Notes under the pieces: model-generated
Seen by the model: only the letters and a program-made list of their open reading frames with translations
Database searches by the model: none
Told to the model about the DNA's origin: nothing
From: an uncultured Acidobacteriota bacterium
Lineage (GTDB): Bacteria; Acidobacteriota; Thermoanaerobaculia; Multivoradales; DATKCC01
NCBI GenBank assembly: GCA_963739795.1
Contig: CAVUBL010000011.1
Span: 137,215-201,214, forward strand
Length of the DNA stretch: 64,000 nt
Reading direction: 5' to 3'
Part shown: piece after piece, positions 21,503 to 60,784 of the stretch
Layout of the letters: the number at the start of each line of letters is the position of its first letter
How positions within the stretch are numbered: the stretch's first letter is position 1
Program-made: the position numbers and the translations under genes

Positions 21503-21638
21503 ATAACTAAGAGCTCCTCTCACGTACGCCGTCGGTGAATCGGCCCACACTACCAGGGCGCGGCCTCTCCCACCGAGCCCACGGCCGCCGCCGCTCCACC
21601 CGAGGGAAAGTTTGACGGTTGGCGTGGGATCTGTTCAG

Positions 21639-23135
21639 ATGACCGCAGTGAAAGTTGCCCTGTTGAAGGCCCCGGTGGGTGGCATCATCGGGCTCGAGAT
21701 GATCACATTCGTCGAGCCCCTGGGGCTCGAGTGCGTGGCGGGCGGCCTCGAGCAGAACGGTCACGAGTGCCGGATCGTCGACCTGCGCATCGACGGCTTC
21801 GAGCGCGGCCTGGCCAAGGCGCGGGCCTTCGGGCCCGAGGTCGTGGGCCTGCAGTGCAACTTCACGACCGAGCGTTTTCGCCTGCTGCGCCTCGCCCGGC
21901 GGGTCAAGGAGGAGTTCCCCGAGGCTCTGCTGGTGGTGGGCGGCCACGACGCCTCCCGCGATCCCGAGTGGTTCCTCCACCCGGCGATCGACGCGGTGGC
22001 GGTGGGCGACGGCGAGGAGGTCCTGCCGGCTCTGGTCGACGCCTACGAGGCGGGCAAAGACCTGGCGCGGGTGCCGGGTCTGCTGCTCAACCGCCCGGGC
22101 GGCCCGGTGGCCACCGGCCACGCGCCGTCGCGCGACGACATCGACGGGCTTCCCATGCCCGCCCGCCACCTGATCGAGGGCTACGCCGGCGAGTACTACA
22201 TCAACTTCCGCCGGCCCCTGGCGCTCATGGAGACCGCCCGCGGCTGCCCCTTCAAGTGCAACTTCTGCTCGGTCTGGAAGTTCCACGAGAGCACCTTCCG
22301 CGAGAAGTCGCCCGAGCGGGTGGTTCGCGAGCTCGCCCAGATCCAGGCGCCCAACGTCTTCATCACCGACGACATCTTCTGGATGAACGTCCGGCGGGGG
22401 CGCGAGCTGGCGGCGGCGATCAAGGCCTCCGGAATCCGCAAGCACTACACCATCCAGACCCGCTCGGACATCATCACCCGCTTCCCCGAGCTCATCGAGA
22501 CCTGGCGCGAGTGCGGCGAGATGACGATCTTCCTCGGCCTCGAGAAGATCGACGACGCCGGCCTCTCCTCGGTCAACAAGAAGAACACCGTCGCCAACAA
22601 CAACCGGGCGATCGAGATCCTCCAGGACTTAGGGGTCGGCTATACCCCGAACTTCATCGTCGACCCGAGCTGGGAGCGCGAGGACTTCGAGAAGCTCAAG
22701 CGTTGGATCGACAAGACCGGGGCCTACAACAGCGGCTTCTCGGTGCTCACCCCGCTGCCCGGAACCGACCTCTGGGACGAGGTCAAGGACGACGTGGTCA
22801 CCGAGGACTGGGAGCTCTTCGACATCACCCATTCGGTGCTGCCCACCCGGCTGCCGCTCGAGGAGTTCTACCGCGAGCTCGGTGGTCTGTGGAAGCACAC
22901 CATGGACGTGCGCTACGCCGAGCACGGCCGGCTCAAGGTCCACCTCGGTTTGCTCGCCGCCCTGGCGAGCCGCCAGGTGACCTTCCAGGCCCTGCGCAAG
23001 GGAATGCGCATGGGCACCGTCCTGAGCCGCCCGGAGACCTTCCTCCGCGCCCACCGCGAGAGCGAGGAGCGACTTGGCTCCGTGGCCGAGATCCTCGACG
23101 AGAAGCGCCCCCACCCCGCTGCCCGGGCCGTCTAG
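21639..23135 (+). CDS. B12-binding domain radical SAM protein
   Basis: N-terminal cobalamin-binding Rossmann-like domain, then CPFKCNFC (CxxxCxxC) radical SAM cluster motif; ~500 aa. Confidence 0.8.
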   Translation: MTAVKVALLKAPVGGIIGLEMITFVEPLGLECVAGGLEQNGHECRIVDLRIDGFERGLAKARAFGPEVVGLQCNFTTERFRLLRLARRVKEEFPEALLVVGGHDASRDPEWFLHPAIDAVAVGDGEEVLPALVDAYEAGKDLARVPGLLLNRPGGPVATGHAPSRDDIDGLPMPARHLIEGYAGEYYINFRRPLALMETARGCPFKCNFCSVWKFHESTFREKSPERVVRELAQIQAPNVFITDDIFWMNVRRGRELAAAIKASGIRKHYTIQTRSDIITRFPELIETWRECGEMTIFLGLEKIDDAGLSSVNKKNTVANNNRAIEILQDLGVGYTPNFIVDPSWEREDFEKLKRWIDKTGAYNSGFSVLTPLPGTDLWDEVKDDVVTEDWELFDITHSVLPTRLPLEEFYRELGGLWKHTMDVRYAEHGRLKVHLGLLAALASRQVTFQALRKGMRMGTVLSRPETFLRAHRESEERLGSVAEILDEKRPHPAARAV

Positions 23136-23314
23136 CCCGGATTTCTACCCAGCCTCCTGCTGCAACGCCGCATCTGCCCGCATATCCGGCGTTGGGTTCG
23201 GTGCGGCCTCCTCGACGTACTGTCAAGTACGCCTGCGTCGTCCTCCCGTCACCCGCCTTGGATCTACGAACATCTGCGACGTTTCGCCACGGAGGCTGGG
23301 TAGAAATCCGGGCT
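23134..23314. repeat. intergenic palindromic element, copy A (24-bp perfect terminal inverted repeats plus conserved core hairpin)
   Basis: AGCCCGGATTTCTACCCAGCCTCC at 23134-23157 and its exact reverse complement at 23291-23314; core GCGGCCTCCTCGACGTACTGTCAAGTACGCCTGCGTCG at 23203-23240. Confidence 0.8.
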
Positions 23315-24286
23315 CGTCGCCGCGCCTACCTCCGGACGCGGCACGCCCATCTCCGGGTCCCACGCCAGGATCTTGTCGCTCCGGGGGAGCGGCGCCTCGG
23401 GGACCTGTCCCACCGACACGCCGTCCTTCCAGTCCGTCGGGCAAATGGCGACGTAGCGCGCGTAGCCGCCCGTTCCGCCCTGGAGCTTCGGGTAGCCTAT
23501 GGTCACCAGGCAGCCGGTCTCCGGTACCTGGTCCAGATTGGCCACGCCCTCGGCCTGCGTGTAGCCGTGGTGCATCAGCCAGTGCTCGCTGTCGAGGTTC
23601 GGCGTGTCGTCGGTGTCGAGAGTCTCGTGGCCGTGGAAGAGGATGTGGCGCTCCTCGTGGAGGAACTGGACGGCCGCCAGCGATACGCCCGGGAAAACCG
23701 CCCCCGTGGCGAGGGCGGGATCGGGCCAGCGCTTCGACCAGTCGGAGCGGACCATCACCACCGAGCCGGCGGGAATCCTGCCGTTCCTTGCCTCCCAGCG
23801 CTCGATGTCCGAAACCTGGAGGGCGTACCCCGGGTCCTTGGCCACCTGGTCGACGATCGAGATCACCACCAGCGGCCGGACCGCGAAGGTCGGCGGCAGC
23901 TCGTCGATGGACGGGTACTCGGGCGCCCAGTGGGCCGGAGGGTCGAGCTGGGTGCCGAGCTGGTCGGTCGCGAAGTCGTAGTGAGTCGCCTCGAAGCCGT
24001 CGGTCGCATAGCGGTAGGGCTTGCCGGTCGCCGGGTCGAGGGCCGGCCCGAAGGTCGATTTTCCGAAGCCCCGCCAGACCGGGATCGAGGGGGAGACGGT
24101 GTGGGTGAGGTCGATGTACTTGGCACCCTTGAGCGAGTGCTCGTAGACCGACCACAACCCGTGGGCGGGAGACTTCGGGGAGGGGCTCTGCGCCGCCGGC
24201 GGCGGGCCGGCGGAAGGGTTCCGGGCCGCGGGAAGAAGGAGGAGCGCGGCGGCGGCCGCGATGGCGAGAAGGAGGGCTTTCTTCAT
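23264..24286 (-). CDS. putative cyclase family protein (kynurenine formamidase-like)
   Basis: signal peptide; KYIDLTHTVSPSIPVW matches putative-cyclase fold; last ~17 codons and the stop lie inside repeat copy A. Confidence 0.55.
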   Translation of the reverse strand: MKKALLLAIAAAAALLLLPAARNPSAGPPPAAQSPSPKSPAHGLWSVYEHSLKGAKYIDLTHTVSPSIPVWRGFGKSTFGPALDPATGKPYRYATDGFEATHYDFATDQLGTQLDPPAHWAPEYPSIDELPPTFAVRPLVVISIVDQVAKDPGYALQVSDIERWEARNGRIPAGSVVMVRSDWSKRWPDPALATGAVFPGVSLAAVQFLHEERHILFHGHETLDTDDTPNLDSEHWLMHHGYTQAEGVANLDQVPETGCLVTIGYPKLQGGTGGYARYVAICPTDWKDGVSVGQVPEAPLPRSDKILAWDPEMGVPRPEVGAATSPDFYPASVAKRRRCS

Positions 24287-24309
24287 GCGGGTTCTCCGAG
24301 CGGAGGGCT

Positions 24310-24675
24310 TCAGGACAGCAGGACCAGAAGGAGCGCCAGCGCGGCCGGCAGGGCCTGGACGAAGAGGATCTTGCGGCTGGCGGTGGCGGCGCCGAAGAGG
24401 CCGGCGATGAGCACGCAGGTCAGGAAGAAGAGCTTCACGCCCGTCCCGCCCGCGCTACTCGAGCCCAGGACGAGCCCCCAGACGAGGCCTGCGGCGAGGA
24501 AGCCGTTGTAGAGCCCCTGGTTGGCGGCGAGCACCTTCGTGGCCGCCGCGGCCTCCCGGCTCTGGCCGAAGGCGCGGAGCCCGGCCGGCTTGTCCCAGAG
24601 GAACATCTCCAGCACCAGGAAGTAGACGTGCAGGAGGGCGACGAGGCCCACGACGACGTTGGCGATGGTGGACAC
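24310..24675 (-). CDS. DUF1304 family membrane protein
   Basis: 121 aa, 4 TM helices, MSTIANVVVGLVALLHVYFLVLEMFLWDKP typical of DUF1304. Confidence 0.55.
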   Translation of the reverse strand: MSTIANVVVGLVALLHVYFLVLEMFLWDKPAGLRAFGQSREAAAATKVLAANQGLYNGFLAAGLVWGLVLGSSSAGGTGVKLFFLTCVLIAGLFGAATASRKILFVQALPAALALLLVLLS

Positions 24676-25396: not shown

Positions 25397-26008
25397 TCAG
25401 AGAGGCGCCCAGACCGGCTCGAGGTCCAGGACGAAGCCGGGAAGCTCGGGGTCGCCGGAGACCGTCTCCGGCGCCTCGAGCGCCTCGGCCTCCCGGCCCG
25501 GCCGGTAGACGTGTACCCGTCGCGCGTGCGGATCGATCAGCCAGCCGAGCCGCGCGCCGTTGTCGCGGTACTCCTCCATCTTCGCCTGCAGGGTCGCGAG
25601 CCGATCCGAGGGCGACTTGATCTCCACGACGAAGTCCGGGCACAGGGGAAGGAACTTCTCGCGCGCGTCCGGAGGGATGTCGGCCAGACGGGAGCGGACG
25701 ACCCACGAGGCGTCCGGAGACCGCATGGAGTCATTCGGGAGAATGAAGCCGCCCGACGAGTCGAAGGCGATGCCGGAGCCGTCGCGCTTCGCCCAGGTTC
25801 CGAGCGCGGTGGCGACCTCCAGGCTCCGATGACTGCTCCCTGCCCCCGCTGGCGTCATGACGATGAGATCTCCCTTCGCATCGCGCTCGATCCGCAGCTC
25901 CGGGTTCCGCGCGCACAGCTCGAAGAGCTCGTCGTCCGTTCGGGGGACCACGCTTCCCAGGTCTAAGAGGAGCGGCTCAGGCTCGATGTAGATCGAGATG
26001 CCTCGCAT
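25397..26008 (-). CDS. Uma2 family (DUF820) endonuclease
   Basis: PD-(D/E)xK-like PDFVVEIKSPSD motif and overall Uma2 pattern. Confidence 0.6.
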   Translation of the reverse strand: MRGISIYIEPEPLLLDLGSVVPRTDDELFELCARNPELRIERDAKGDLIVMTPAGAGSSHRSLEVATALGTWAKRDGSGIAFDSSGGFILPNDSMRSPDASWVVRSRLADIPPDAREKFLPLCPDFVVEIKSPSDRLATLQAKMEEYRDNGARLGWLIDPHARRVHVYRPGREAEALEAPETVSGDPELPGFVLDLEPVWAPL

Positions 26009-26261
26009 GGCTTCGCCCGAAGGTTAGCACGGGGTCGAGGACGCCGAGGTCGTCGGATGGCACGGAGATCCTGAAGCGGAGCCCGGAGGACTCAGGCTCC
26101 GTGCAAAGCGTTTCGGCCGGGATGACGATGTGGGGCGGTCAGGGCTGCCATGCCCGATACACAGCCGAAGAGGCCTCCCCCGCAGCTTGGGGCTGGCCGT
26201 CCCGGAGGGCCCCGGCCCGCCCCAAGGGGCTCGCTCAGAGAATCCTTCCGCATTCGGCCGC

Positions 26262-26348
26262 CCAGGCATCCATCCTCGCGGCGTTGCGCTCCCTGCGACA
26301 TAGGCCCTGCTATGCCTCGGTCGCGCGCCTTGCGAGAATGGCGCCTGC
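26262..26348. repeat. degenerate copy (F) of the palindromic element core
   Basis: GGCGTTGCGCTCCCTGCGACATAGGCCCTGCTATGCCTCGGTCG aligns to the copy B/C core with compensatory changes; imperfect flanking inverted repeats (CCAGGCATCCATCCTCGC / GCGAGAATGGCGCCTG). Confidence 0.5.
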
Positions 26349-26385
26349 GCACCCTCGGTGCAGGAGGTCTTCTCGGATCGAGCCC

Positions 26386-28881
26386 CTACTCGGCCGCCAG
26401 CGCCACCGCCGGGTCCACCCGCGTCGCCCGCCGTGCAGGAATCGCCGTTGCAGCCAGCACCACCAGCGTGAGCAACCCCGCCACCGCCAGGAACACCTCC
26501 GGATCGAGCGGCGTCACCCCGTAGAGCATCCCCGCCATCGCACGCGTCAGGAACACGGCCCCTACCAGCCCCGTCCCCAGCCCCACCGCCAGCACCCGCA
26601 CCCCGTGGCCCAGCACCAGCCGGAACACCTCCCCGCTCGACGACCCCAGCGCCACCCGGACCCCCAGCTCCCGCGTGCGCTGCGCCACCGCGTAGGCCAG
26701 CACCCCGTAGATCCCCACCGCCGCCAAGAAGAGCGCCACCAGCGCGAACACCGTCGCGAGCAGCATCGGCAGCCGCGTGTCCACCAGCGCCCGGTCGATC
26801 CGCTCGTCCATGGTCATCACGTCGTCGAGGGGTAGCTCCGGATCGAGTGCGCGGAGCACGCGCCGCACGCCCGGCACCAGCGCCTTCGGATCACCGTCGG
26901 TCCTCAGCGCAACGGTCAGGTTGCTCCGGGTGTCCTGGCTCAGCGGGAAGTAGTAGGCGCCGTGGTTGCTCTCGCCGGCCAGGTCCGAGACCAGGATCTC
27001 GTCCACCACTCCCACCACCGTCAGCCACTCGATCTTCGAAGGGTCCTTCTCGAGCTGGGGCACGCTCTGGGAGATCCGCCCCCCGACCGGGTCGCGACCC
27101 GGCCAGTACTTCTCCGCCATCCAGCGGTCGACGATCGCCACCTTCTGCGAGTCCGCCGTGTCCCGCTGGTCGAACGGCCGGCCCTCGAGCACCTTGATCC
27201 CCAGGGTCTGGAAGTAACCGGGCGACACGATCCGCCGGAACGGCGCCCGCACCGATTCGCCCGGCTGCGGCTCGTAGCCCTCCACGGTGATCACGCTCGA
27301 GCTCGAGTTGTTGCCGAAGGGGATCGCGTCGGTGAGGCCGGCGTGCACGACCCCTGGAAGCGAGCGAGCCCGATCGAGGAAGCGGGAGGCGAAGGCGCGC
27401 CGGGCCGGGTCGTCCTTGTAACGGCTGTCGGGCAGCGAGACGGTGGCGGTCAGCACGCCGGCGGGCTGGAAGCCCGGATCGACCGCCAGCAGCTTCTGGA
27501 AGCTCGTGAGCAGGAAGCCCGCTCCCACCAGGAGCACGAAGGCGAAGGCCACCTGCAGCGCGACCAGGGTGCTCCGGGCGACGACGGCCCGGCGCGAGGC
27601 ACTGCCCGTTCGGCCCTCCTCGCGGAAGATCGAAGAGAGGTCGCTGCGGAACACCTGGACCACCGGGATCAGCCCGAAGACCGTGCCCAGCACGAGTGCT
27701 GTGGCGAGGGTGACCAGAAGCACCCCGCCGTCGACCCCGATCTCCGCGCCCCGCGGGATGTGCTCGGCACCTAGAGTGGCAAGCAGTCGCAGGCTCCAGT
27801 ACCCGGCGAGGACGCCGAGGGCACTCCCGACGAGGGTGAGCACCAGATTCTCCGTGATCAGCTGGCCGGCCAGGCGACCGCGTCCCGCTCCCAGGGCGCA
27901 GCGCGTGGCGAGCTCCTTCCGGCGGGTGCTGGTGCGCACCAGGATCAGGTTCGCAATGTTGCCACAGCCGATCAGCAGCACGAAGAGGGCGCCGCCCAGG
28001 AGCAGGGCGAGCTTCGGCCGAATGTCGCGGATCATGTCGTCGCGCCAGGGCTCGACGATCGTGTGGAAGCCGGCGTCGATCAGGAGCTGCTTGAACTGAG
28101 GGAAGCGCTCGAGGTTCCGGGCGTTCAAGGCGTCGATCTGGGACCGTGCCTGGGCCAGCGAGGCACCCGGGGCCAGGCGGGCGATCATCTGCCAGGAGTT
28201 CGAGTGGCGCCGGTCGTCCGAGCGGTCCTCGGTCGTGAAGGCGGCCGGGACGATCAGCTTGGCGCGGGTGTCGGGCACCTCGAAGCCCCGGGGCAGGACT
28301 CCGATCACGGTGTAGGGCTCGCCGTCGAGGCGGAGGTCCTGGCCGAGGGCATCGTCGCGGCCCCCGAACAGCCGCTGCCACATGCCGTAGGTCAGGATCA
28401 CCTTCTTCTCGTTGCCCACCTCGCCGTCCTCGGCGCTGAACGCGCGGCCGCGGAGGACTTTGACGCCCAGCACGTCGAAGATCGACGGGGTGGCCACGAG
28501 CGTGCGCACGCGCTCCGGAGTCTCGCCGTGGAGCAGCGCCGGTCCCTGGGTGCGGAACAGGGCCACGCTCGCGAAGGCTCCCACCTGCTTCTTTCGGTCG
28601 TAGAAGTCCGGTACGCCGTTCGACGACCGCTCGACGCCTGCGCCTGGGTAGCTGTTGTTGAGGATCACCAGGCGGTCGGAGGCCGGGAACGGGAGGGGCT
28701 CGAGGACGACCGACCGGAAGACGCTGAAGGTGGCGACCGCCGCGCCCATGCAGAGCGTCAGGATCAGGAGGACGGTGACGGTAAAGCCGCGACCGCGCGC
28801 CAGGGTGAGGAACGCGTGGCGGAGGTCCCTGCCCAGGAGCTCGGGGCGGGCACGGTCGGGGCGCGGCGGTCGGTCGGTCAT
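26386..28881 (-). CDS. ADOP-family ABC transporter permease (MacB/FtsX-like, duplicated)
   Basis: ~830 aa with two FtsX permease domains and large periplasmic domains; N-terminal DLRHAFLTLARGRGFTVTVLLILTLCMGAAVATFSVF typical of ADOP/MacB. Confidence 0.8.
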   Translation of the reverse strand: MTDRPPRPDRARPELLGRDLRHAFLTLARGRGFTVTVLLILTLCMGAAVATFSVFRSVVLEPLPFPASDRLVILNNSYPGAGVERSSNGVPDFYDRKKQVGAFASVALFRTQGPALLHGETPERVRTLVATPSIFDVLGVKVLRGRAFSAEDGEVGNEKKVILTYGMWQRLFGGRDDALGQDLRLDGEPYTVIGVLPRGFEVPDTRAKLIVPAAFTTEDRSDDRRHSNSWQMIARLAPGASLAQARSQIDALNARNLERFPQFKQLLIDAGFHTIVEPWRDDMIRDIRPKLALLLGGALFVLLIGCGNIANLILVRTSTRRKELATRCALGAGRGRLAGQLITENLVLTLVGSALGVLAGYWSLRLLATLGAEHIPRGAEIGVDGGVLLVTLATALVLGTVFGLIPVVQVFRSDLSSIFREEGRTGSASRRAVVARSTLVALQVAFAFVLLVGAGFLLTSFQKLLAVDPGFQPAGVLTATVSLPDSRYKDDPARRAFASRFLDRARSLPGVVHAGLTDAIPFGNNSSSSVITVEGYEPQPGESVRAPFRRIVSPGYFQTLGIKVLEGRPFDQRDTADSQKVAIVDRWMAEKYWPGRDPVGGRISQSVPQLEKDPSKIEWLTVVGVVDEILVSDLAGESNHGAYYFPLSQDTRSNLTVALRTDGDPKALVPGVRRVLRALDPELPLDDVMTMDERIDRALVDTRLPMLLATVFALVALFLAAVGIYGVLAYAVAQRTRELGVRVALGSSSGEVFRLVLGHGVRVLAVGLGTGLVGAVFLTRAMAGMLYGVTPLDPEVFLAVAGLLTLVVLAATAIPARRATRVDPAVALAAE

Positions 28882-29001
28882 CGGTCTCCTCCCGGGCAGC
28901 TCGGAAGCGGGCCACCTCACCCGATCTAACGGGTGGGCGGGGCGGCGGGTTTCACAAGAGTGCCGCGAAGACCGCGGGACGAGCCGGCGAGCGCGCGCGG
29001 C

Positions 29002-30099
29002 TCAGAAGCGAGCCGGGTCGAAGGCCTCGGCCGGCGTCTCGCCCAGGAGACCCTCGGCGGCCAGCCGGCCGACCTCCCAGCTACAGCCCATGCCGTGGCC
29101 TCCCAGGCCGGCCACCCAGAAGAAGCTCTCCTCGCCGGGCGCCGGGCCGATGACGAAGCGGCCGTCGGCCGGCCGGGTGCGGAAGCAGGACCAAACGCTC
29201 CGGACCCGGGCGTCGCGCAGGCGGGGCAGGTGGGCGTGGATGCGCTCGGCCAGGGCCTCCTCGATGCCGGGGCTCACCGTCTCCTCGAGGCTCCTCGAGG
29301 TCTCCTCGTCGCAGATCGAGACGAGGAGACCTCCCGACTCGGGCCGCAGGTAGAAGTGCCGGTCGAGGTCCCACACGAACGGCCAGTCGGGGTCGATGGG
29401 GCCGACGCCCTCGACCACGAAGAGGTGGCGCTTGTAGGCCACCAGCTCCGGCCCGGGAACGCCGGCGAGGGCCGCCACCTCCCCCGCCCAGCCGCCGGCG
29501 GCGTCGACCACGCGGCCGGCCTCGATCTCGCCCCGGGCGGTTCGCAGGCGCCAGGCCCCACCTCCGCCGCCTCGCCGTAGCTCGAGGACCCGGTGCTCGG
29601 TGAGGAGCTCCACGCCTCGGGAGCGCGCGCCGGCCAGGTAGTGGCTCAGGAGGGCCCAGGTGTCGAGCACGCCATCGGTAGGGGTCTCGAGCACCGCCTC
29701 GAAGGAGTGACCCACCAGGAGCGGGATGCGCTCGAAGGCCCGGTCCGGGGCCACGAAGCGGCTGGCGCTCCGCTCCGGCGACCCCGGGGCCTCGGGGACC
29801 CGGACCGTCTCCAGCGTCGCGCGGCGCCCCAGCAGGAGCGAGCCCACCGGCCGGTAGCCGACCTCGTCGGCGAGCTCCTCGTAGGGCCCACGGCTCGCCA
29901 TGGCGACCGCACGGATCGCCGGATCGGCCTCGGTCTGGCGGAGCATCGAGGCGTTGCGCCCCGAGGCGTGGGCGCCGGGGGCCTTCTCCTGCTCCAGGAG
30001 GGCGATGGAGCCGGCGAAGCCCCGGCTCAGGTGGTAGGCGGTGGCGGCGCCGGCGAACCCGGCGCCGACGATGGCGATGTCGAAGCCGCGCGAGCCCAT
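29002..30099 (-). CDS. FAD-dependent oxidoreductase (DAO family)
   Basis: N-terminal FDIAIVGAGFAGAATAYHL dinucleotide-binding motif; ~365 aa. Confidence 0.75.
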   Translation of the reverse strand: MGSRGFDIAIVGAGFAGAATAYHLSRGFAGSIALLEQEKAPGAHASGRNASMLRQTEADPAIRAVAMASRGPYEELADEVGYRPVGSLLLGRRATLETVRVPEAPGSPERSASRFVAPDRAFERIPLLVGHSFEAVLETPTDGVLDTWALLSHYLAGARSRGVELLTEHRVLELRRGGGGGAWRLRTARGEIEAGRVVDAAGGWAGEVAALAGVPGPELVAYKRHLFVVEGVGPIDPDWPFVWDLDRHFYLRPESGGLLVSICDEETSRSLEETVSPGIEEALAERIHAHLPRLRDARVRSVWSCFRTRPADGRFVIGPAPGEESFFWVAGLGGHGMGCSWEVGRLAAEGLLGETPAEAFDPARF

Positions 30100-30185
30100 G
30101 GCCGCTCAGCGTAGCAGCCAGACGCCCGCGAATCGTGGAACCGGTCGGGGGGGAAGGGGATCGAGGGGATGTGGGGGGCACCGGG

Positions 30186-32612
30186 TCAACTGTCGCGCAG
30201 GGCGATCGCCGGGTCGACGGCGGCGGCGCGGCGAGCGGGCATCCAGCTCGCGAGCACCGTCACCACCGCCAGCACCGCACCCACGCCCAGCACGGTCAGC
30301 GGCTGGACCTGGGTCAGGCCGGACAGCGCGGTGCCGATCGCCCGGGTCACCAGGATCACTCCCGGCACCCCGAGAACGATCCCGATCGCGGCGAGGAGAA
30401 GCCCCTGGCGGGTGACCATGGCCCGGACCTGGCCCGCGCGGGCGCCCAGGGCCATGCGCACACCGATCTCGTGGGTGCGCTGGGCCACGGTGAAGGCGAG
30501 CACGCCGTAGGTCCCGAGCGCGGCGAGGAGCAGGGCGAGAGTGCCGAAGGCGCCCAGGATCGACGTGATCACCCGCATCCCGACGAAGAACTGCGCCGAG
30601 TACGCCGCGATCGACTGCACCTGGGAGACGACGAGACTCGGATCGTACGCCTCGAGCACCTGGCGCACGGGGCCGGCGAGGGCGTCGGGATCGCCCGCCG
30701 AGCGCAGGGTCACTGCCACGGCGGTAGGCGGCTGCTGGGCGAGGGGCAGGTAGATCACCGGCTGGTCCTTGTCGGTGAAGATGACGCCGTGGGACACCGT
30801 GTCCACCACCCCCACGATCCGGTGGCTCTTCCCCTCGACCGTGATCTGCCGGCCGAGGGGGTCGGCGTCCGGCCACTGGCGTTCGACCAGAGCGCGGTTG
30901 ACGATCGCCACCAGCGCCGAGTCGATGCGATCGGCGGAGGTGAAGGCCCGGCCGGCGCGCACCGCCACGCCGAGGGTCTCGAAGAACCGGGGGTCGACCC
31001 GCCCGACACCGGCGCTCGGCGGCGCCTGGCCCGCGGGCGGCGGCGAAGCGTCCACGGTGTAGGTCTCGCTCGGGAGCAGCGGCGTGCGGGGGCGGAAGCT
31101 CGAAGCGCTCGCCGCCACGACCCCCGGGACGGCCGCGAGGCGACGGCTCATCTCCTCGATCTGCGCCGCCCGTTTCGCCGGCGAGGCCTGGGCGTCGTCC
31201 GGCAGGTCGACCCTCAGCGTGGCCAGATGGGCGGTCTCGAAGCCGGGATCCGTGTGCTGGAGCTCGAGGAAGCTCCTCACCATGACCGCCCCGCCTCCCA
31301 GGAGCACCAGCGAGAGGGCGATCTCCGCCACCACCAGGCCCCGGGCCACCAGCCGCCGACGGCCTCCGAGGCTCGCTCCGCGCCCGCCTTCCTTGAGCGC
31401 CGTCTGGACCTTCATGCGGCTCACCTGGAAGACCGGGAGCATGCCGACGATCAGCCCGGCGACGACGGTGACTCCGACGGTGAACGCCAGCACCCGGCCA
31501 TCGACCGAGGGCAGATAGACCTTGGGCAGGCGGGATACGAAGGCGTTGGCGATGCTGCGGGTCGCGAGGTACCCGAGGCCCAGCCCCAGCACGCCGCCCG
31601 CTGCCGCGGAGACCAGAGACTCCGTGGCGAGCTGGCGGGCGATCCGCCAGCGCCCGGCGCCCAGGCTGGAGCGCACCGCGAGCTCGGTGACGCGGCCCTG
31701 GGTGCGGGCCAGGAGCAGGTTGGCGATGTTGGCGCACGCGATGAGGAGCACGAAGATCAGCGCGCCCTGGAGGAGCCCGAGAATCTGGCGGTCCTGGTGC
31801 GACGGCAGCTCGGTGCGCAGGTTGAGAGTCTGAACCGTGTAGCCCCGGTTCGCCTCCGGGTACTCTTTGGCCAGGCGCTCGCCCAGCGACTTCATGGCGG
31901 TCGCGGCCTCGGCCGTGGTCACCCCGGGGGCGAGGCGGCCCATCGCCAGCAGGTTGCGGCGATCGCGCTTGGCCGTGGCGGGGTCGAGGGCGAGGGGGCG
32001 GTAGAGCTGGATGCCGGGATCGACGAACTCGAAGCGTTCGGGCAGCACGCCCACCACGATGTTGGCCTCGCCGTTGATCGTGATCGTCTTGCCGAGGACC
32101 GCCGGGTCACCGGCGAAGCGGCTCTGCCAGAAGCCGTAGGTGAGGACCACCACCTTGGCAGAGGCGCCGGGCTTCCCCTCCTCTGGGAGGAAGGCCCGCC
32201 CGAGCCGAGGCTGGACGCCCAGCAGGGGGAAGAAATCCGGGGTCACCTGGGCGGCGGTGACCGGCTCGCTCCGGTCGCCCGAGCCGCTGCCGGCGCCGAG
32301 CTTCACCGGAGCGGAGGAATAGGCAGCCATGGCCGAAAAGCTGGTCTGGCGCTGTTGCCAGTCGAGGAAGTTGAGGGCGGAGGTGCCCGAGACCTGCCCG
32401 GCGAGCTTCGGGTCTTGGTACTCCCCGACCAGGGCCAGGCGCTCTGGGTGGTCGTAGGGCAGCGGCCGGAAAAGCAGGCCGTTGACCAGGCTGAAGACCG
32501 CCGTGTTGCCGGCGATCGCCAGGGCCAGCGAGCCGACCACCAGCACGGTGACCGCCGGGGCCTTGCGCAGGGACCTGAGCGCGTACTTGACGTCTTGGAC
32601 GAGACTCTCCAT
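30186..32612 (-). CDS. ADOP-family ABC transporter permease
   Basis: N-terminal VKYALRSLRKAPAVTVLVVGSLALAIAGNTAVFSLVNGLLFRPLPY; 808 aa; two FtsX domains. Confidence 0.85.
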   Translation of the reverse strand: MESLVQDVKYALRSLRKAPAVTVLVVGSLALAIAGNTAVFSLVNGLLFRPLPYDHPERLALVGEYQDPKLAGQVSGTSALNFLDWQQRQTSFSAMAAYSSAPVKLGAGSGSGDRSEPVTAAQVTPDFFPLLGVQPRLGRAFLPEEGKPGASAKVVVLTYGFWQSRFAGDPAVLGKTITINGEANIVVGVLPERFEFVDPGIQLYRPLALDPATAKRDRRNLLAMGRLAPGVTTAEAATAMKSLGERLAKEYPEANRGYTVQTLNLRTELPSHQDRQILGLLQGALIFVLLIACANIANLLLARTQGRVTELAVRSSLGAGRWRIARQLATESLVSAAAGGVLGLGLGYLATRSIANAFVSRLPKVYLPSVDGRVLAFTVGVTVVAGLIVGMLPVFQVSRMKVQTALKEGGRGASLGGRRRLVARGLVVAEIALSLVLLGGGAVMVRSFLELQHTDPGFETAHLATLRVDLPDDAQASPAKRAAQIEEMSRRLAAVPGVVAASASSFRPRTPLLPSETYTVDASPPPAGQAPPSAGVGRVDPRFFETLGVAVRAGRAFTSADRIDSALVAIVNRALVERQWPDADPLGRQITVEGKSHRIVGVVDTVSHGVIFTDKDQPVIYLPLAQQPPTAVAVTLRSAGDPDALAGPVRQVLEAYDPSLVVSQVQSIAAYSAQFFVGMRVITSILGAFGTLALLLAALGTYGVLAFTVAQRTHEIGVRMALGARAGQVRAMVTRQGLLLAAIGIVLGVPGVILVTRAIGTALSGLTQVQPLTVLGVGAVLAVVTVLASWMPARRAAAVDPAIALRDS

Positions 32613-32698
32613 CGTTCCTCCTCGGTGCGGGCCGCGGTCGCCCCGCGCTCGACCCGTTCAGGGAGGACTACGACTCCCGCCGCCGGGAGTTTCGCCGC

Positions 32699-35152: not shown

Positions 35153-35233
35153 GCTCTCCTCCTCCGAAGTTGCCTCTACCTACTCGCGGGCGGCGGGTTT
35201 TGTTACGCGGTCGTCGTCACCCGCGGCGCGCTG

Positions 35234-38649: not shown

Positions 38650-39030
38650 ATGGACGAACCGCTCACCCTGACCTTCGAGACCTTCTGGACCTGGGTCGCT
38701 TCGCATCCCAACTGCATCCTCCGGGCGGGGACGCCGGAGGCGGTCCTCTACGACGACGAGGACCTCCACTGGCACTTCGCGGCCGAGGGGCCGCAGACTC
38801 TGGTGGTGCAGGTGATCCGGGGCAAGCGCCTGGTGGGTGAGCTACTCGTCGAGCCCGAGCACGTGACCTACGTCCAGGGCTCGGCCGGCGATCCCGAGGA
38901 CGAGTTCGTCTTCGAGCTGGTCTCCGAGACGGAGGCCGAGCAGATCGTCGCCTACTTCTTCGTCCTGGCCCACGGGTACGAGCCGCAGGAGGCGACCCAC
39001 CCGCCGTCGTCCAGGCTGCAAGTTCACTAG
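38650..39030 (+). CDS. hypothetical protein
   Basis: 126-aa ORF with balanced, non-low-complexity composition (MDEPLTLTFETFWTWVASHPNCILRAG...); no recognisable family. Confidence 0.4.
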   Translation: MDEPLTLTFETFWTWVASHPNCILRAGTPEAVLYDDEDLHWHFAAEGPQTLVVQVIRGKRLVGELLVEPEHVTYVQGSAGDPEDEFVFELVSETEAEQIVAYFFVLAHGYEPQEATHPPSSRLQVH

Positions 39031-39193
39031 TGGTCCGTCAACCTTCAATTGACGGGTCCCACCGGTCCTTCACGCCGCTGGCGGCGTTGCTCCTCCTCGA
39101 CGTAGGCCCCGCTACGCCTGCGTCGGAGCGCCTGGCCAGCGACGCGAAATCCTCGCCGGATACCCTGTCAATTGAAGGTTGACGGACCACTAG
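39027..39193. repeat. intergenic palindromic element, copy B (27-bp perfect terminal inverted repeats plus core hairpin)
   Basis: CTAGTGGTCCGTCAACCTTCAATTGAC at 39027-39053 and its exact reverse complement at 39167-39193; core GGCGTTGCTCCTCCTCGACGTAGGCCCCGCTACGCCTGCGTCGG. Confidence 0.8.
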
Positions 39194-44682: not shown

Positions 44683-45080
44683 GCGACTGGGTCACCCCCC
44701 TCACCCTCAATCCCTCTCCCACCCTCGCGGGGGGAGAGGGACGCCCCCGCCCTGCTCTCAGGCCGTCAGGGAGTCCGACGAACGCCGATCCACCCCTCAC
44801 ACTCCTCCCATTTCAGCGGAGCTGTCGTTCCCATCGCCGAGGAGGCAGGCCGCGGGGCCGCGTGGTTTCTCGCCGGCGCAGAGATCCACTGGATCACCCC
44901 CCTCACCCTCGATCCCTCTCCCACCCTCAAGGTGGGCGAGGGACGCCGCCGCCCCCTTCCTCCACCAAGGAGTCCGACGAACGCCGATCCACCCCCTTGC
45001 CCCTTTTCGGCGGAGCTGTCGCTTCAACCGCCGAGTGGGCAGGCCGCGGGGCCGCGTGGTTTCTCGCCGGCGCAGTCTGC
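44683..45080. repeat. two tandem ~200-bp direct repeats (about 88% identical) with internal GC hairpins
   Basis: unit 1 ~44683-44888, unit 2 ~44889-45080; shared blocks GATCACCCCCCTCACCCTC, CCCTCTCCCACCCTC, GGAGTCCGACGAACGCCGATCCACCCC, GCAGGCCGCGGGGCCGCGTGGTTTCTCGCCGGCGCA. Confidence 0.8.
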
Positions 45081-51309: not shown

Positions 51310-52059
51310 ATGACTGGGAAGCCTGGAAGCAGGACCGCGCGGCGGCTGTGCGTGGTGGGAATCCTGACGTTCCTGTTCCTCGGGTTGGACACCGCTCCGA
51401 CCCTTCCCGCCATGTCGATCTCGCTGCCCGACCCGCCGAACCTCGAAGAGGTGGCGATGATGGAGGAGATGGCCGACTGGCTGGTGGGCCCCGCGGCCCA
51501 GGGCCGCCATCTCGACACCATGGTTCGGGACAATCTGGCCGATCTCATCCGGGAGAAGCCCCGGAGCTTCGAGCTGTTCCGGCGCACTCTCGACAACAAC
51601 GCCGAGCGGGAGTTCCTGCACGGTCTGCCTTACGGCGCCGTCATCCAACAGGTCGCCGATGACAACCGCCTGGACGGCCTTCTCCTGGCCGCTCTGGTCG
51701 AGGTGGAGTCGAGCTTCCTCCCCGACGTCGTCTCTCCGGTGGGCGCGGTGGGCCTGACCCAGGTCATGCCGTCGACCGCCCGGTGGCTGGGCAACGGCGT
51801 TGACCTTACCGACCCCGACTCGAACCTGGAGGTCGGGGCCCGGTACCTGAGTCAGCTCCTCGACCGCTTCGACGGCAACCTGGAGCTTGCCCTGGCGGCC
51901 TACAACGCCGGCCCGGCGGCGGTCCTCAAGTACGGAGGCATGCCGCCCTACCGCGAGACCCGCAGATACGTCTCCCGGGTGCTGACCCTCTACGCGGACC
52001 ACAATCGCGAGGTCTGGAAGACCTCCGGCGGGGTCGAGCAGCTCGCGTCGTTGGACTGA
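51310..52059 (+). CDS. lytic transglycosylase domain protein (SLT family)
   Basis: signal peptide; catalytic motif LLAALVEVESSF, GLTQVMPSTA, AYNAGPAAV. Confidence 0.8.
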   Translation: MTGKPGSRTARRLCVVGILTFLFLGLDTAPTLPAMSISLPDPPNLEEVAMMEEMADWLVGPAAQGRHLDTMVRDNLADLIREKPRSFELFRRTLDNNAEREFLHGLPYGAVIQQVADDNRLDGLLLAALVEVESSFLPDVVSPVGAVGLTQVMPSTARWLGNGVDLTDPDSNLEVGARYLSQLLDRFDGNLELALAAYNAGPAAVLKYGGMPPYRETRRYVSRVLTLYADHNREVWKTSGGVEQLASLD

Positions 52060-52218
52060 GAGCTTGTGAATGAATCGCCGACCTACTGCGGGCGCCCCCG
52101 AATCACCCCTCGCGACGTTACGCCTCCTCGACGTAGTCCCCGCTACGCCTGCGTCGGCCCGCCTTGCGAGGGGCGCCCGGGAACGCCCTCGTGACGGCCG
52201 GCGATCCATTCACAAGCT
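52058..52218. repeat. intergenic palindromic element, copy C
   Basis: terminal inverted repeats GAGAGCTTGTGAATGAATCGCCG / CGGCGATCCATTCACAAGCTCT (one A/C mismatch, which is G-U if read as minus-strand RNA); core CGCCTCCTCGACGTAGTCCCCGCTACGCCTGCGTCGGCC; inner 10-bp helix CGGGCGCCCC/GGGGCGCCCG. Confidence 0.8.
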
Positions 52219-52325
52219 CTGAGTGCGGCGCCTGCCGCGAGGTGTGAGAGAGCGCTCCGATCGATTCAGTCGGTCGGAGCGCTCGCGCGTTTGGGAAGCG
52301 GGAGCGGTGGGGAGGAGGCTAGAGG

Positions 52326-52520
52326 CTACGGGCGATGGTCGGTGCCTGAGCCGGTCCCCTCGTCGAGGTGCTCCTTGCCGTCCTCGTCCCTCAATCCCTT
52401 CTTGAAGTTGCGGATGCCTTCGCCGAGGCCCTTCCCGAGCTGGGGGATCTTCGACGCGCCGAAGATGACCACGATGATGGCGAGGATGAGCAGGAGCTCT
52501 TGTACACCGAGACCAAACAT
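52326..52520 (-). CDS. tatA: twin-arginine translocase subunit TatA/E
   Basis: [42 protein letters not shown], canonical TatA. Confidence 0.85.
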
Positions 52521-52574
52521 TGAGTGACTCCTCGGGCGCCGGGGCGAGAGGCTCCGCCACCCTGTGGTTGGAGA

Positions 52575-53594
52575 TCAGTCTAGCAGAGCGCGTGCCAGAT
52601 CGATCCGGCCATCGGCGACCGGCCGCCAGAGCGTCTCGAGCCGCTCCACCAGGGGCTCCGTCTCGGCCACGCAGCGCAGATGGTCCAGGGCCCGAACGAG
52701 GGTCGGCGCGATGAGCGGAAGGTGCCGGGCCGCGCCTCGATGGGCGAAGGCGGCGTAGCTTCCCACCGCCTTGAGGGTTCGCTGGGCGGCCGCGCGGTGA
52801 TAGCTCTCCCGGCTGACCGGGGCCCCGTCGAGCAGGCGCTCCTCGAGGCCGGCCGGGGGGAACAGGCTGTCGTTGAGGAGCGAGGCCAGGTCGTAAGCCG
52901 GCGGGCCAAGCCGCAGATCCTGATGGTCGAGGACGCCGACCCGGGCCTTCCCGGGGCCGGCCGCGGGGCCCCCCAGAGGCATCAGGTTCCGGGCGCCGAA
53001 GTCCCGGTGGCAGGGGACGGCCGGCTCGGCACCGAGGCGCTCGCAAAGCTCGGCGAGGGCGGCGGCGACCTCGGGGCCTCCGGCGAGGCCCAAGGGCTCG
53101 AGCAGGGCGGCCTGCGTCTGGCCGAGCTCGCGCTCCAGGAGCTCCCGGTCGAGGGGCGGGTTGAGTGCGGCGACCTCGTCCCGCGCCAGGTCGGCCAGGT
53201 CGGCGATCCGGCGAGCGGCGGCGGCTGCGGCCTCGAAGTAGGGGGTGAGCTCGGTCCACGGCCGCTCCCTCTCCTCGTAGAGGGTGCGCGGTCCCAGGTC
53301 CTCCAGGAGGGCCCATCCGGCCCCGCAGTCCTCGTCGAGGACCCTGGGCACCCGGACACGGGCGCCGGTGAGCAGGCGGGTCGTCGTGAGATATCGCGAG
53401 CAGGTCGCGGCGAGATCGGGAGGGTAGAGGGCGAGGATCGCGGGGCCGGCGGCGAGGCGGAGCCGGAAGTAAGCCCGCCGGGAGACGTCCCCCGCCATGG
53501 GATGCGCCTCGCCGACCCGATGGCCCCGGCGCTCCAGGGCTTCGAGGGCCTCCAGGGCAGGGGTCAGGGGTTCAGAGGTCGGCGGGGCGGTCAT
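52575..53594 (-). CDS. phosphotransferase-family kinase (APH/AmgK-like)
   Basis: Brenner motif HRDFGARNLM and downstream Asp; overall aminoglycoside-phosphotransferase/MurNAc-GlcNAc kinase-like length and pattern. Confidence 0.55.
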   Translation of the reverse strand: MTAPPTSEPLTPALEALEALERRGHRVGEAHPMAGDVSRRAYFRLRLAAGPAILALYPPDLAATCSRYLTTTRLLTGARVRVPRVLDEDCGAGWALLEDLGPRTLYEERERPWTELTPYFEAAAAAARRIADLADLARDEVAALNPPLDRELLERELGQTQAALLEPLGLAGGPEVAAALAELCERLGAEPAVPCHRDFGARNLMPLGGPAAGPGKARVGVLDHQDLRLGPPAYDLASLLNDSLFPPAGLEERLLDGAPVSRESYHRAAAQRTLKAVGSYAAFAHRGAARHLPLIAPTLVRALDHLRCVAETEPLVERLETLWRPVADGRIDLARALLD

Positions 53595-53645
53595 CGAGGA
53601 GGTGCGAAGGGCCGAATCGGGCGGGGAAAGGCCGGGCGGGCTAGC

Positions 53646-53818
53646 CTGGACTCTTCATGAGGCGCCGTAGCGAGAGGCGAAAGAGTGTGTGAGATCAGGG
53701 CACACGTAGCGATGAGAGACGCAGGCGTACTGGACAGTACGTTGAGGAGCGAAGAGCGAGTACGCCCTGAGATCGCGTGGAATTGCGGCTCGTAGTAGGT
53801 GGCTCATGAATAGTCCAG
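53646..53818. repeat. intergenic palindromic element, copy D (inverted orientation relative to A-C)
   Basis: core present as its reverse complement (CGCAGGCGTACTGGACAGTACGTTGAGGAGCG); terminal inverted repeats CTGGACTCTTCATGAG / CTCATGAATAGTCCAG with one mismatch. Confidence 0.7.
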
Positions 53819-53911
53819 GCGAGGGGACCAGAGCCGCTATTATACGGGGACGCTGCAGCCCGAAGGAGCGCCACAGGCGCCTGGAATGGCGTCTCCGGCG
53901 GCCTTGTTCTG

Positions 53912-57836: not shown

Positions 57837-57846
57837 CCCACAAGAC

Positions 57847-57882
57847 GAGACCCCCGCCTGGCGCGCGCCAGGCGGGGGTCTC
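57847..57882. terminator. bidirectional palindromic terminator between convergent ftsX and ompA-like genes
   Basis: GAGACCCCCGCCTGGCGC|GCGCCAGGCGGGGGTCTC, an 18-bp perfect palindrome 11 nt after the ftsX stop and 30 nt after the ompA-like stop. Confidence 0.5.
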
Positions 57883-57911
57883 GAGGTCTACTTACTGCCG
57901 CGCGAACCGCG

Positions 57912-60622: not shown

Positions 60623-60657
60623 GACCGCGCCGTATTCTAGCCTGGATCTCCCGTGAG

Positions 60658-60748
60658 TCTCCTGCTGCAACGCTTCAGCGGCCCCCCCCCAACACCGGCG
60701 TTGCGCTCCCTCCGGCCTCCTCACCCCCGGCGTTGCGCTCGGCTCGGC
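60658..60748. repeat. partial copy (E) of the palindromic element (left half only)
   Basis: TCTCCTGCTGCAACGC...CCGGCGTTGCGCTCCCTCCGGCCTCCTCACC shares CTCCTGCTGCAACGC, the GCAACGC/GCGTTGC hairpin, CCGGCGTTG and CGGCCTCCTC with copy A, but lacks the GACGTAS...CGTCG core hairpin. Confidence 0.5.
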
Positions 60749-60759
60749 CCCCAAATGAA

Positions 60760-60784
60760 GAGGGGCCGCGAATCGCGGCCCCTC
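60760..60784 (-). terminator. intrinsic terminator of the TPR protein gene
   Basis: GAGGGGCCGCG-AAT-CGCGGCCCCTC 11-bp stem; on the minus strand it is followed by CTTCATTT, 24 nt downstream of the stop. Confidence 0.6.

Follow-up and report, generated by a model that had tools for sequence, protein, structure and literature searches.

Mobile palindromic elements with a conserved multi-loop hairpin interior in an uncultured Acidobacteriota bacterium and in other bacterial genomes

The 64,000-nucleotide stretch of DNA analysed here (referred to below as the window) contains approximately 49 ORFs and six copies of a non-coding element of 104-190 bp, namely four full copies (A, B, C and D), one diverged copy (F) and one half-remnant (E). 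Six repeat loci had been predicted from the letters of the sequence, and all of them were found at or near the predicted coordinates. The elements and their flanking sequences are as follows.

23132..23316, minus strand: copy A, long form with a class-A end; the element proper runs from G23135 to C23313 and its sense (G-U) strand is the minus strand
23132-23135 and 23313-23316: flanks of copy A, CTAG and the degenerate CTCG
23136..23157: left terminal inverted repeat (TIR) of copy A, arm of helix P1, CCCGGATTTCTACCCAGCCTCC
23207..23240, minus strand: core of copy A, sense GACGCA / GGCGUAC-UUGACA-GUACGUC / GAGGAG
23291..23312: right TIR of copy A, arm of helix P1, GGAGGCTGGGTAGAAATCCGGG
26240..26371, minus strand: copy F, diverged member (19.3 bits), between tandem minus-strand genes
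39027..39193, minus strand: copy B, class-B end (38.9 bits), with a perfect P1 helix of 27 bp
39027-39030 and 39190-39193: flanks of copy B, CTAG (holding the TAG stop of the plus-strand gene 38650..39030) and CTAG
52056..52223, minus strand: copy C, class-C end (61.2 bits), ends AGCTTGTGAAT...ATTCACAAGCT
52056-52060 and 52219-52223: flanks of copy C, CTGAG (holding the TGA stop of the plus-strand gene 51310..52059) and CTGAG
53641..53823, plus strand: copy D, class-A relative (93.5 bits), sense strand plus, with divergent genes on either side
53641-53644: left flank of copy D, CTAG; the right flank is the degenerate CGAG
60637..60778, minus strand: copy E, remnant in which the sense strand is reduced to its 3' half (11.6 bits)

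The bit scores were obtained with a covariance model, R1 (153 positions, 43 pairs), whose seed consisted of related copies from other genomes together with A and D; copies C, B and F are outside the seed. In a search of the window with filters off, the highest score was that of copy A (139.7 bits), the E values of copies F and E were 0.002 and 0.23, respectively, and no further copies were detected. The 14-mer CCTCCTCGACGTAS is present without change in A, B and C and with two mismatches in D; at up to two mismatches it has 21 matches in the window, compared to 2.0 expected from shuffled sequences. The core of copy A corresponds to an internal loop (J3) around a helix (P4), within which a G-U pair is conserved. 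In copy F the core reads GACCGA / GGCAUAG-CAGGGC-CUAUGUC / GCAGGGAG, a variant shared with a locus in another genome (L007:1046-1184). Copy E keeps GAGGAG, CAACGCC, UUGCAGCAGG and the end CTAG/CCTGGATCTCC, and carries a partial internal duplication in place of the 5' half.

Of the four longest inverted repeats in the window, three are the outer arms of copies A, B and C. Long near-perfect arms had been described for every full copy; the arms of A (24 nt) and B (27 nt, perfect) are indeed of this kind, whereas those of C are perfect over 14 nt only (29 nt at 90% identity) and those of D are imperfect and 9 nt long. The arms had also been thought to be unrelated between copies. However, A, D and E all open with CTAG/CCYGGA, and the arm types recur in other genomes: that of copy B was found in loci L014, L030 and L038 (L079 and L092 have a related variant), that of copy C in L003, L011 and L085. 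Across the elements the perfect terminal arms measure 9-28 nt, and the arm classes are conserved between genomes.

Copies A, B and C are located directly 3' of stop codons, between convergent genes, as the original prediction had stated. In copy A the left CTAG holds the TAG stop of the plus-strand gene 21507..23135, and the three copies abut stop codons because their flanking CTAG or CTGAG contains a TAG or TGA stop. The tetramer CTAG is depleted 10-fold in the window (71% G+C). The stop-codon association is thus an effect of the target site and does not by itself point to a 3'-UTR function.

A scan of other genomes matched at least 116 loci, and a single MAG, VGTG01, contains at least 14 loci. 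At least nine near-identical copies in VGTG01 have unrelated flanks with CTAG on both ends, and many copies are located at contig ends. An empty site for copy B was found in a relative of the present genome (loci L120 and L121, with a flanking protein 89% identical), in which the same gene pair, consisting of the orthologous 126/127-aa gene and a PFK gene, is separated by a 57-nt spacer that lacks the element. Among 67 distinct class-A TIR pairs, 50 are flanked by NTAN on both sides, 33 of these by CTAG/CTAG; in the 17 non-identical tetramer pairs it is chiefly the outer letters that differ, with no match between the two sides of the element. Perfect TNA duplications flank 16 of the 23 delta-type copies, which have TACCRR... 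ends, and three of the five Syntrophus-type copies, which have TTCCGG... ends, all four bases being found as N. The IS1380 family, to which the class-A ends are related (see below), is listed in the ISfinder table with duplications of 4-5 bp. Since the outer positions differ without matching, a TA duplication fits the class-A flanks better than a 4-bp one; both a 4-bp CTAG duplication and a model without duplication are disfavoured by the flank statistics and the empty site.

The TIR-based metagenome scan yielded pairs of class-A TIRs 175-178 bp apart, corresponding to the elements, and pairs 1663-1765 bp apart. The latter correspond to six full-length IS of 1.66-1.77 kb, each with one ORF of 467-506 aa. 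The ORF of locus L141 matches Pfam DDE_Tnp_1_4 (E = 1e-158) and the NCBIfam IS1380-family transposase model (400 bits), and the other five ORFs are 55-67% identical to it. The class-A end (copy A type), CCYGSATTTCTCA, is the TIR of all six IS1380-family IS, which also have CTAG flanks in common with the elements; in copy A, 12 of the first 13 positions of CCCGGATTTCTACCCAGCCTCC are identical to the IS1380-family TIR CCCGSATTTCTCA. In one case (L242) an element and an IS are found on the same contig. The similarity between the full-length IS and the element is limited to about 15-17 nt, none of the subterminal motifs of the element is present in the IS, and the class-A TIR carries several unrelated cargo classes.

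The VGTG01 copies, the empty site, the TNA duplications and the TIR common to the IS1380-family IS identify the elements as MITEs, i.e. non-autonomous DNA transposons. The earlier statement that they do not have the pattern of a transposon with conserved TIRs was therefore mistaken: the arms belong to a few TIR classes conserved across genomes, which is what the original prediction had itself named as the mark of an ordinary mobile element. A cognate autonomous element with matching ends was found for class A only, and no IS-sized TIR pairs of classes B, C, D, delta or Syntrophus were present among the loci retrieved from other genomes. In agreement with the earlier observation that no transposase is nearby, no transposase, integrase, RAYT, TnpB or reverse transcriptase gene was found among the ~49 ORFs of the window. 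IS1380-family DDE transposases may mobilise class A, and probably its relatives D and E, in trans, the copies in the window being presumably passive passengers.

The interior of the element is a multi-loop hairpin module of 90-145 nt and not leftover IS sequence. The whole element forms one long hairpin, the outermost helix of which (P1) doubles as the TIRs. Helices P2a, P2b and P3 covary. Between them lie internal loops that are conserved and rich in purines, namely J1 (GUMGCGAG / CGCAGYAG), a loop of tandem G-A (AGAU / AGAU), J2 (CAAGGCG / CAACGMRG) and J3 (GACGCA / GAGGAG). The module is capped by P4, a helix of 7 bp. The covariation reported for the inner stem is present (GUAC/GUAC in A and D, GUAG/CUAC in B and C, AUAG/CUAU in F); the helix is 7 bp long instead of the 5 bp proposed, and reads GGCGUAS/SUACGUC, including the G-U pair, on the opposite strand. 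A genuine repeat family with a conserved core, true compensatory substitutions and a nested helix that is conserved although its sequence varies, all proposed originally, are supported by the alignments. In 16 divergent long forms, double compensatory changes were found at 32 of the 43 pairs. In an alignment of 97 distinct copies fitted to the R1 model structure, 89% of the cells are paired, compared to 59% after shuffling and 31-44% after sliding, double changes occur at 40 of the 43 pairs, and the covariation score is 0.374 versus 0.096. Copies picked without reference to the core keep P4 and J3 and show compensations such as GGCAGAC/GUCUGUC. The end-to-end length between class-A TIRs is held at 175-178 bp.

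The two strands are not equivalent. G-U pairs in the stems outnumber A-C pairs by 52 to 12 in total, with an excess of G-U in 14 of 16 sequences (33 to 6 in an independent pair count), and the five foldable copies of the window are all more stable on the sense strand, by 13-23 kcal/mol. For copy A the predicted RNA fold has an energy of -116.2 kcal/mol (z = -11.9) on the minus strand and of -93.8 kcal/mol (z = -7.95) on the plus strand. The G-U pairs and the stability thus favour the strand opposite to that in which the repeat was first described. DNA energy parameters favour the sense strand as well (-61.1 versus -52.3 kcal/mol), so that the RNA and DNA energy models prefer the same strand. 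No bias in sense orientation was detected relative to the flanking genes (24 same, 20 opposite, based on crude gene calls) or to the local GC skew (48 versus 47), which argues against a host-beneficial function embedded in mRNA and against a mutational origin of the G-U bias. Within the element there is no room for a promoter of its own upstream of the hairpin. When the loops were compared by eye, no convincing fit to the kink-turn, hammerhead, sarcin-ricin or IHF-site consensus was apparent, and the subfamilies do not share small ORFs downstream of GAGGAG.

Copies are found in approximately 10 bacterial phyla or candidate phyla, according to MAG taxonomy labels that may include contamination. 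The labels comprise Deltaproteobacteria and Myxococcota, Acidobacteriota, Nitrospirota, Gemmatimonadota, Planctomycetota, Spirochaetaceae, Auribacterota, Clostridia, Sporomusaceae and Oscillospiraceae, Gammaproteobacteria, Saccharibacteria and Peribacteria. MAGs labelled Syntrophus and Geobacter are also among the carriers, with loci L057 and L068. The same core is combined with at least two classes of ends and duplications. The proposed absence from Rfam was confirmed for the whole window (no gathering-score match in Rfam 15), and a search of positions 51900-53950 (copies C and D) with E values up to 10 gave only irrelevant weak matches; no tRNA or tmRNA was found. Literature searches by core sequence, by MITE, taxon and structure, and in IS-family target tables returned no description of the element. 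Copy A had no match in a plasmid collection. In viral contigs the core pattern gave one match and the class-C end pattern chance matches only, the single IS-sized pair being a phage terminase region. All-against-all clustering of the ORFs at the at least 116 loci revealed no co-occurring gene, but only abundant, unrelated families (NtrC-type regulators, acyl-CoA ligases, ABC ATPases, HtrA and TctC).

The elements resemble Correia/CREE of Neisseria, ERIC/IRU of enterobacteria, RUP and bcr1 of the Bacillus cereus group, which are likewise short and non-coding, with TIRs, short target duplications, dispersed intergenic copies and long imperfect hairpins; compensatory changes have been reported for bcr1. 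General properties of MITEs have been described (PMC3184786, PMC10969869), and the known MITE families are each limited to a genus or family, with mutually dissimilar cores (PMC3184786). In contrast to Correia, ERIC, RUP and bcr1, the core described here spans approximately 10 phyla or candidate phyla, has fixed purine-rich loops and is associated with two or more end and duplication classes. The Chunjie MITE of the deltaproteobacterium Geobacter uraniireducens measures 178-235 bp and has a very stable predicted RNA hairpin, but it is A+T-rich, with 21-bp TIRs and 9-bp direct repeats (PMC3184786). This description in reviews sets it apart from the present elements, which have TA or TNA duplications. 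With the IS1380 family (ISEcp1, IS1380, IS942) the class-A elements share the TIR and the CTAG-flanked sites seen in the six IS, and the left terminal repeat of ISEcp1 (CCTAGATTCTAC...) resembles the class-A TIR; unlike these IS, the elements have no transposase, and their interior is unrelated to IS subterminal sequence. Like integron attC sites, they conserve structure while the sequence varies, fold on one active strand and have conserved unpaired bases. They are nevertheless not attC sites, as had been concluded before: the aligned copies lack R''/L'' and L'/R' boxes (RYYYAAC ... GTTRRRY), are dispersed with TIRs and target duplications instead of being arranged in a cassette array, and no integrase domain was found in the ~49 ORFs.

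The explanation that we consider probable is that the elements form a MITE superfamily, of which class A is moved by IS1380-family enzymes and the interior is selected as a strand-specific fold. An ordinary MITE with a functionless interior, in which the apparent covariation would come from template switching at quasi-palindromes or from co-evolution of long ends with the transposase, appears unlikely. It would account for the TIRs and target duplications on either side of the element, for the absence of orientation bias relative to genes or GC skew and for a TIR that carries several unrelated cargo classes. It does not account for internal loops that are never corrected to perfect palindromes and whose sequences are conserved across phyla, TIR classes and duplication classes, for the fixed length, or for the short similarity of the full-length IS to the elements. 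Nor would the excess of G-U over A-C pairs be expected for double-stranded ends, and replication or transcription bias does not explain it.

The strand-specific fold might instead recall REP/BIME elements, which also are intergenic palindromes, often located after stop codons, with GTAG-like motifs and strand-specific action. Movement by a RAYT (Y1 HUH) or IS200/IS605-type enzyme at GTAG-like sites would agree with the J1 GUAG, which many copies carry in the sense strand on either side of the inner hairpin. However, this motif varies (GUCG, GUCA and GCAG were seen as well), the matched duplications with a variable middle base (TAA, TGA, TCA, TTA) imply that both strands are cut in a staggered manner, the elements end in perfect TIRs of 20-27 bp common to DDE-type IS, and the ~49 window ORFs include no Y1_Tnp or OrfB gene. 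REP elements measure 20-40 nt and lack TIRs and target duplications. We regard this possibility as very unlikely. Even less credible is the view originally put forward, that of a non-mobile, stand-alone structured RNA gene or host cis-regulatory 3'-UTR or terminator. The strong covariation, the position of A, B and C and the lack of a transposase nearby speak for it; against it stand the target duplications, the conserved TIR classes, the empty site and the IS partner, together with the random orientation relative to genes and the common, unrelated neighbours at the 116 loci listed. The target motif and the depletion of CTAG account for the link with stop codons. An intrinsic (Rho-independent) terminator was rejected, as copies A and B have no T-run after P1 on either strand and hence no U-tract after the hairpin, and the orientation is random.

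Insertion of these MITEs appears to duplicate TA at a preferred C/TA/G site in classes A and B and duplicates TNA in other classes, and the elements therefore often land on TAG or TGA stops, in either orientation. The module is best read as being selected in the form of a folded single strand, and specifically of one of the two strands. It would most likely act as RNA produced by read-through transcription, a role towards which we lean slightly; a hairpin of single-stranded DNA, active while the element transposes or is replicated, appears to be a less likely alternative. In either case the module would be needed in cis for propagation of the element itself and not for a host function. A more speculative possibility, which we put forward only tentatively, is that the core is an autonomous selfish structured module (an RNA or single-stranded DNA fold) of 90-145 nt, with three or four purine-rich internal loops and the conserved G-U pair, spread through approximately 10 bacterial phyla by a terminal helix that has repeatedly come to mimic the ends of different resident transposons. 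The ends mimicked would be of the IS1380 type with TA duplication and of other types with TNA duplication, and mobilisation would depend mechanistically on the fold, which might recruit a transposase or host factor, bring both ends together in one hairpin, or self-process.

The elements account for frequent contig breaks in soil and sediment MAGs and for long palindromes located exactly on TAG or TGA stops in high-G+C genomes, and they connect one IS1380 subgroup with a (C)TA(G) target as well as with a large number of non-autonomous passengers. R1 represents a candidate new RNA family. MITEs are usually viewed as stripped-down IS with freely drifting interiors. Here, the interior is the most conserved part, and its fold persists across phyla and transposon ends, which implies either a cis-acting requirement for propagation that lies outside current models of DDE transposition or an unrecognised RNA activity.

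All six loci of the original prediction are present in the window (G+C ~71%), and the repeat family is real and far beyond chance. The 14-mer CCTCCTCGACGTAS occurs exactly in copies A, B and C and with two mismatches in D; allowing up to two mismatches, it matches the window 21 times against 2.0 expected. A covariance model of the element (R1) was seeded with 14 relatives from other genomes plus A and D, and the window was searched with filters off. The sense strand, defined as the G-U-bearing one, is indicated for each copy.

Copies of the element in the window
23132-23316, minus strand: copy A, 139.7 bits
53641-53823, plus strand: copy D, 93.5 bits
52056-52223, minus strand: copy C, 61.2 bits
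39027-39193, minus strand: copy B, 38.9 bits
26240-26371, minus strand: copy F, 19.3 bits, E = 0.002
60637-60778, minus strand: copy E, 11.6 bits, E = 0.23, 3' half of an element only

This search revealed no copy in the window beyond the six, of which E counts only as a half-element, and A and B scored only 10-13 bits on the opposite strand. The window contains no tRNA genes and, as a whole, no Rfam match at gathering score. Long, near-perfect arms had been claimed for the copies; among the four longest inverted repeats of the window, three are indeed the outer ones of A, B and C, but in C and D the arms fall short of the perfection claimed. Nor are the arms devoid of shared sequence, as A, D and E start with the same bases (CTAG followed by CCYGGA) and every arm type is found again in other genomes. 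Copies near-identical to B were found in an Acidobacteriota MAG (L014, L030, L038) and the type of copy C in L003, L011 and L085; the arms are thus specific to the subfamily and not to the copy.

On the sense strand, the element is built from the outside inwards of P1, J1, P2a, a tandem G-A loop, P2b, J2, P3, J3, P4 and a terminal loop.

Parts of the element, sense strand
P1: outermost helix, doubling as the terminal inverted repeat (TIR)
J1: internal loop, 5' GUM-GC-GA / 3' GCA-GY-A
Tandem G-A loop: AGAU / AGAU, between P2a and P2b
J2: internal loop, CAAGGCG / CAACGMRG, between P2b and P3
J3: internal loop, GA-C-GCA / GA-G-GA, between P3 and P4
P4: 7-bp helix, GGCGUAS/SUACGUC, with a conserved G-U pair
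Terminal loop: 4-8 nt, variable

Short forms lack J1 and some also P2a, and long forms with class-A ends (the classes being defined by end sequence) are strikingly constant in length, with 142-144 nt between the J1 motifs and 175-178 bp from TIR end to TIR end.

Pair-keeping changes on both sides were found in 32 of the 43 predicted pairs among 16 divergent long forms. In an alignment of 97 distinct copies, which was itself fitted to the model, 89.0% of the cells were paired, compared to 59.4% with shuffled and 31-44% with slid partners, double changes affected 40 of the 43 pairs, and the covariation score was 0.374 against 0.096. P4 and J3 are also kept in copies found without the core (through model matches and through the TIR-based sample), with compensations such as GGAAUAU/AUAUUUC, GGCAGAC/GUCUGUC and ACGUAU/AUACGU. 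The strand initially proposed was the wrong one: its reverse is more stable by 13-23 kcal/mol in all five foldable window copies, and isolated mismatches in the initial orientation were 33 times of the A:C type and 6 times of the G:T type (arm-against-arm alignment of 99 copies). The stems without P4 contained 431 Watson-Crick, 52 G-U and 12 A-C pairs in the 16-sequence alignment, G-U exceeding A-C in 14 of the 16 sequences. For copy A, the fold reached -116.2 (z = -11.9) on the sense strand versus -93.8 (z = -7.95) on the opposite strand. DNA parameters prefer the same strand (-61.1 against -52.3), so that the fold under selection could be one of RNA or of single-stranded DNA. Orientation showed no bias with respect to either genes (24 against 20) or GC skew (48 against 47), and neither explains the one-strand G-U bias.

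A scan of one genome per species with the pattern ACGTA-N6-10-TACGCCTGCGTC yielded at least 116 loci, most of them confirmed by R1 at E below 1e-6 and nearly all sharing the nested architecture. According to the record titles of the matches listed, carriers include Deltaproteobacteria and Myxococcota, Acidobacteriota, Nitrospirota, Gemmatimonadota, Planctomycetota, Spirochaetaceae, Auribacterota, Clostridia, Sporomusaceae and Oscillospiraceae, Gammaproteobacteria, Saccharibacteria and Peribacteria. One locus (L036:28-349) has two cores in tandem on the same strand, separated by 238 nt and without long outer helices. In the Acidobacteriota MAG with class-B elements there is also an unrelated IS-like unit of 1.4 kb, whose terminal repeats are perfect over 27 bp (L014:4447-5869; CGGCTCTCCTCAACTATGAGTGGGTAG).

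The family had been considered not to be a transposon, a view contradicted by unrelated flanks, an empty site and target duplications. The MAG VGTG01 carries nine or more near-identical copies in unrelated flanks, with an exact boundary (CTAG, then CCTGCATTTCTCACC...GGTGAGAAATGCAGG, then CTAG). Many copies lie at contig ends; in a second assembly, the gene adjoining copy B is on a contig ending at the element. Homologues of the 126-aa gene next to copy B led to two loci, L120 and L121, with a protein of 89% identity. As in the window, the small gene converges there on a PFK gene, and the spacer downstream is conserved; the gap, however, is only 57 nt and contains no element. The gene end reads ...CACTGAcc there and ...CACTAG[167-bp element ending in CTAG]cc in the window.

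Perfect 3-bp TNA duplications, N being any of the four bases, flank 16 of the 23 delta-type copies (TACCRR...YYGGTA) and three of the five Syntrophus-type copies. Class C has CTCAG or CTGAG on either side. Class-A ends have NTAN on both sides in 50 of 67 distinct TIR pairs, 33 of them CTAG/CTAG. In the remaining 17, the differences lie mainly at the outer positions and the tetramers never match across the element (e.g. TTAG/CTAG four times, CTAG/CTAA five times). These flanks fit a TA duplication at a preferred C-TA-G site, the element termini being G...C; a 4-bp duplication fits them less well, as outer positions differ and non-CTAG tetramers are never matched. CTAG is depleted about 10-fold in the window (17 seen versus 171 expected from base composition); element junctions make up five of the 17 sites, and several others are at gene ends. 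Elements were said to begin at the upstream stop codon, which is true of A, B and C, but as an effect of target choice, since these stops are formed by the TAG or TGA that the target contains and CTAG is so rare.

Several further features were observed in the window.

23264-24454, minus strand: cyclase-family gene reading through the right junction of copy A (23264-23316), whose arm encodes its last 16-17 codons and stop (..SPDFYPASVAKRRRCS*)
25400-26023: Uma2-family endonuclease gene adjoining the next spacer
26024-26386: 360-nt spacer with copy F and a second strongly folding stretch (26068-26194; weak plus-strand R1 match, 13 bits, E about 0.1)
26389-35179: series of three paralogous MacB_PCD/FtsX permease genes (~820-870 aa each), interrupted by one FAD-dependent oxidoreductase gene
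44711-44741 and 44913-44943: 31-nt self-complementary unit (TCCCTCTCCCACCCTCGCGGGGGGAGAGGGA), twice, ~200 nt apart, intergenic
57846-57883: perfect palindrome with 24-nt overlapping arms (CGAGACCCCCGCCTGGCGCGCGCCAGGCGGGGGTCTCG) between FtsX-family and OmpA-family genes, unrelated to the element family

Copy E and L008:6470-6640 are chimeric or half elements, with an intact 3' half joined to unrelated or inverted sequence, as might result from recombination or an abortive event at the apex of the hairpin.

As had been predicted, no transposase is nearby: the ~49 ORFs of the window contain no transposase, integrase, RAYT, TnpB or reverse-transcriptase domain. Around the at least 116 genome loci, neither recurrent neighbour genes other than common families nor IS-sized pairs of matching ends were found. 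Scanning metagenomes for the class-A end CTAGCCYGSATTTCTCACC gave 120 loci, in which inverted-end distances cluster at 175-178 bp (the elements) and at 1663-1765 bp. The latter are six full-length insertion sequences (L134, L141, L182, L202, L238, L242), each with one ORF of 467-506 aa. That of L141 has matches to Pfam DDE_Tnp_1_4 (E = 1e-158) and to the NCBIfam equivalog for the IS1380 family (400 bits, cut-off 180), and the other five are 55-67% identical to it. Insertion sequences and elements share NTAN flanks and only ~15-17 nt of end sequence; J1, J2 and J3 are absent from all six, and in L242 an element and an insertion sequence are 1.5 kb apart. The same ends flank 58-150-bp minis, some keeping only the J1 motifs, and 230-243-bp elements with a GTAGC..GCTAC hairpin (L123-L242), and R1 matched only 18 times in 100 of these loci. 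Examples of these non-autonomous cargo classes are L155:3-242, L158:551-790, L240:2795-2881 and L135:1821-1880. Class A thus uses IS1380-type ends and would be mobilised in trans by IS1380-type transposases, whereas the TNA classes are presumably served by another transposase family. In the IS5 family, TNA duplication is typical of the IS1031 group, which is a lead for these classes.

The elements form a MITE superfamily. They passed every MITE test applied and failed those for REP/RAYT, attC, an intrinsic terminator and every Rfam family. Correia, ERIC, RUP and bcr1, bacterial MITEs that fold as RNA, have unrelated cores and are each confined to one lineage (PMC3184786, PMC10969869), whereas the present core occurs across phyla; Chunjie is set apart by its description, differing in duplication length and base composition (PMC3184786). 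Literature searches found no description of the element.

The interior is something other than IS debris. Conservation is higher there than at the ends, elements with different ends and different duplications have it in common, its loops are never repaired to a perfect palindrome, and it carries the G-U bias towards one strand; that it is functionless appears unlikely. An ssDNA hairpin presenting both ends in one duplex is a possible but rather doubtful role. Judged from sequence, action of the core as RNA has a little better than an even chance. With no orientation bias, an mRNA-embedded function of benefit to the host is disfavoured, whereas a fold that persists across phyla points instead to selection on how the element itself propagates. 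The favoured reading is therefore a sense-strand fold that acts in cis.
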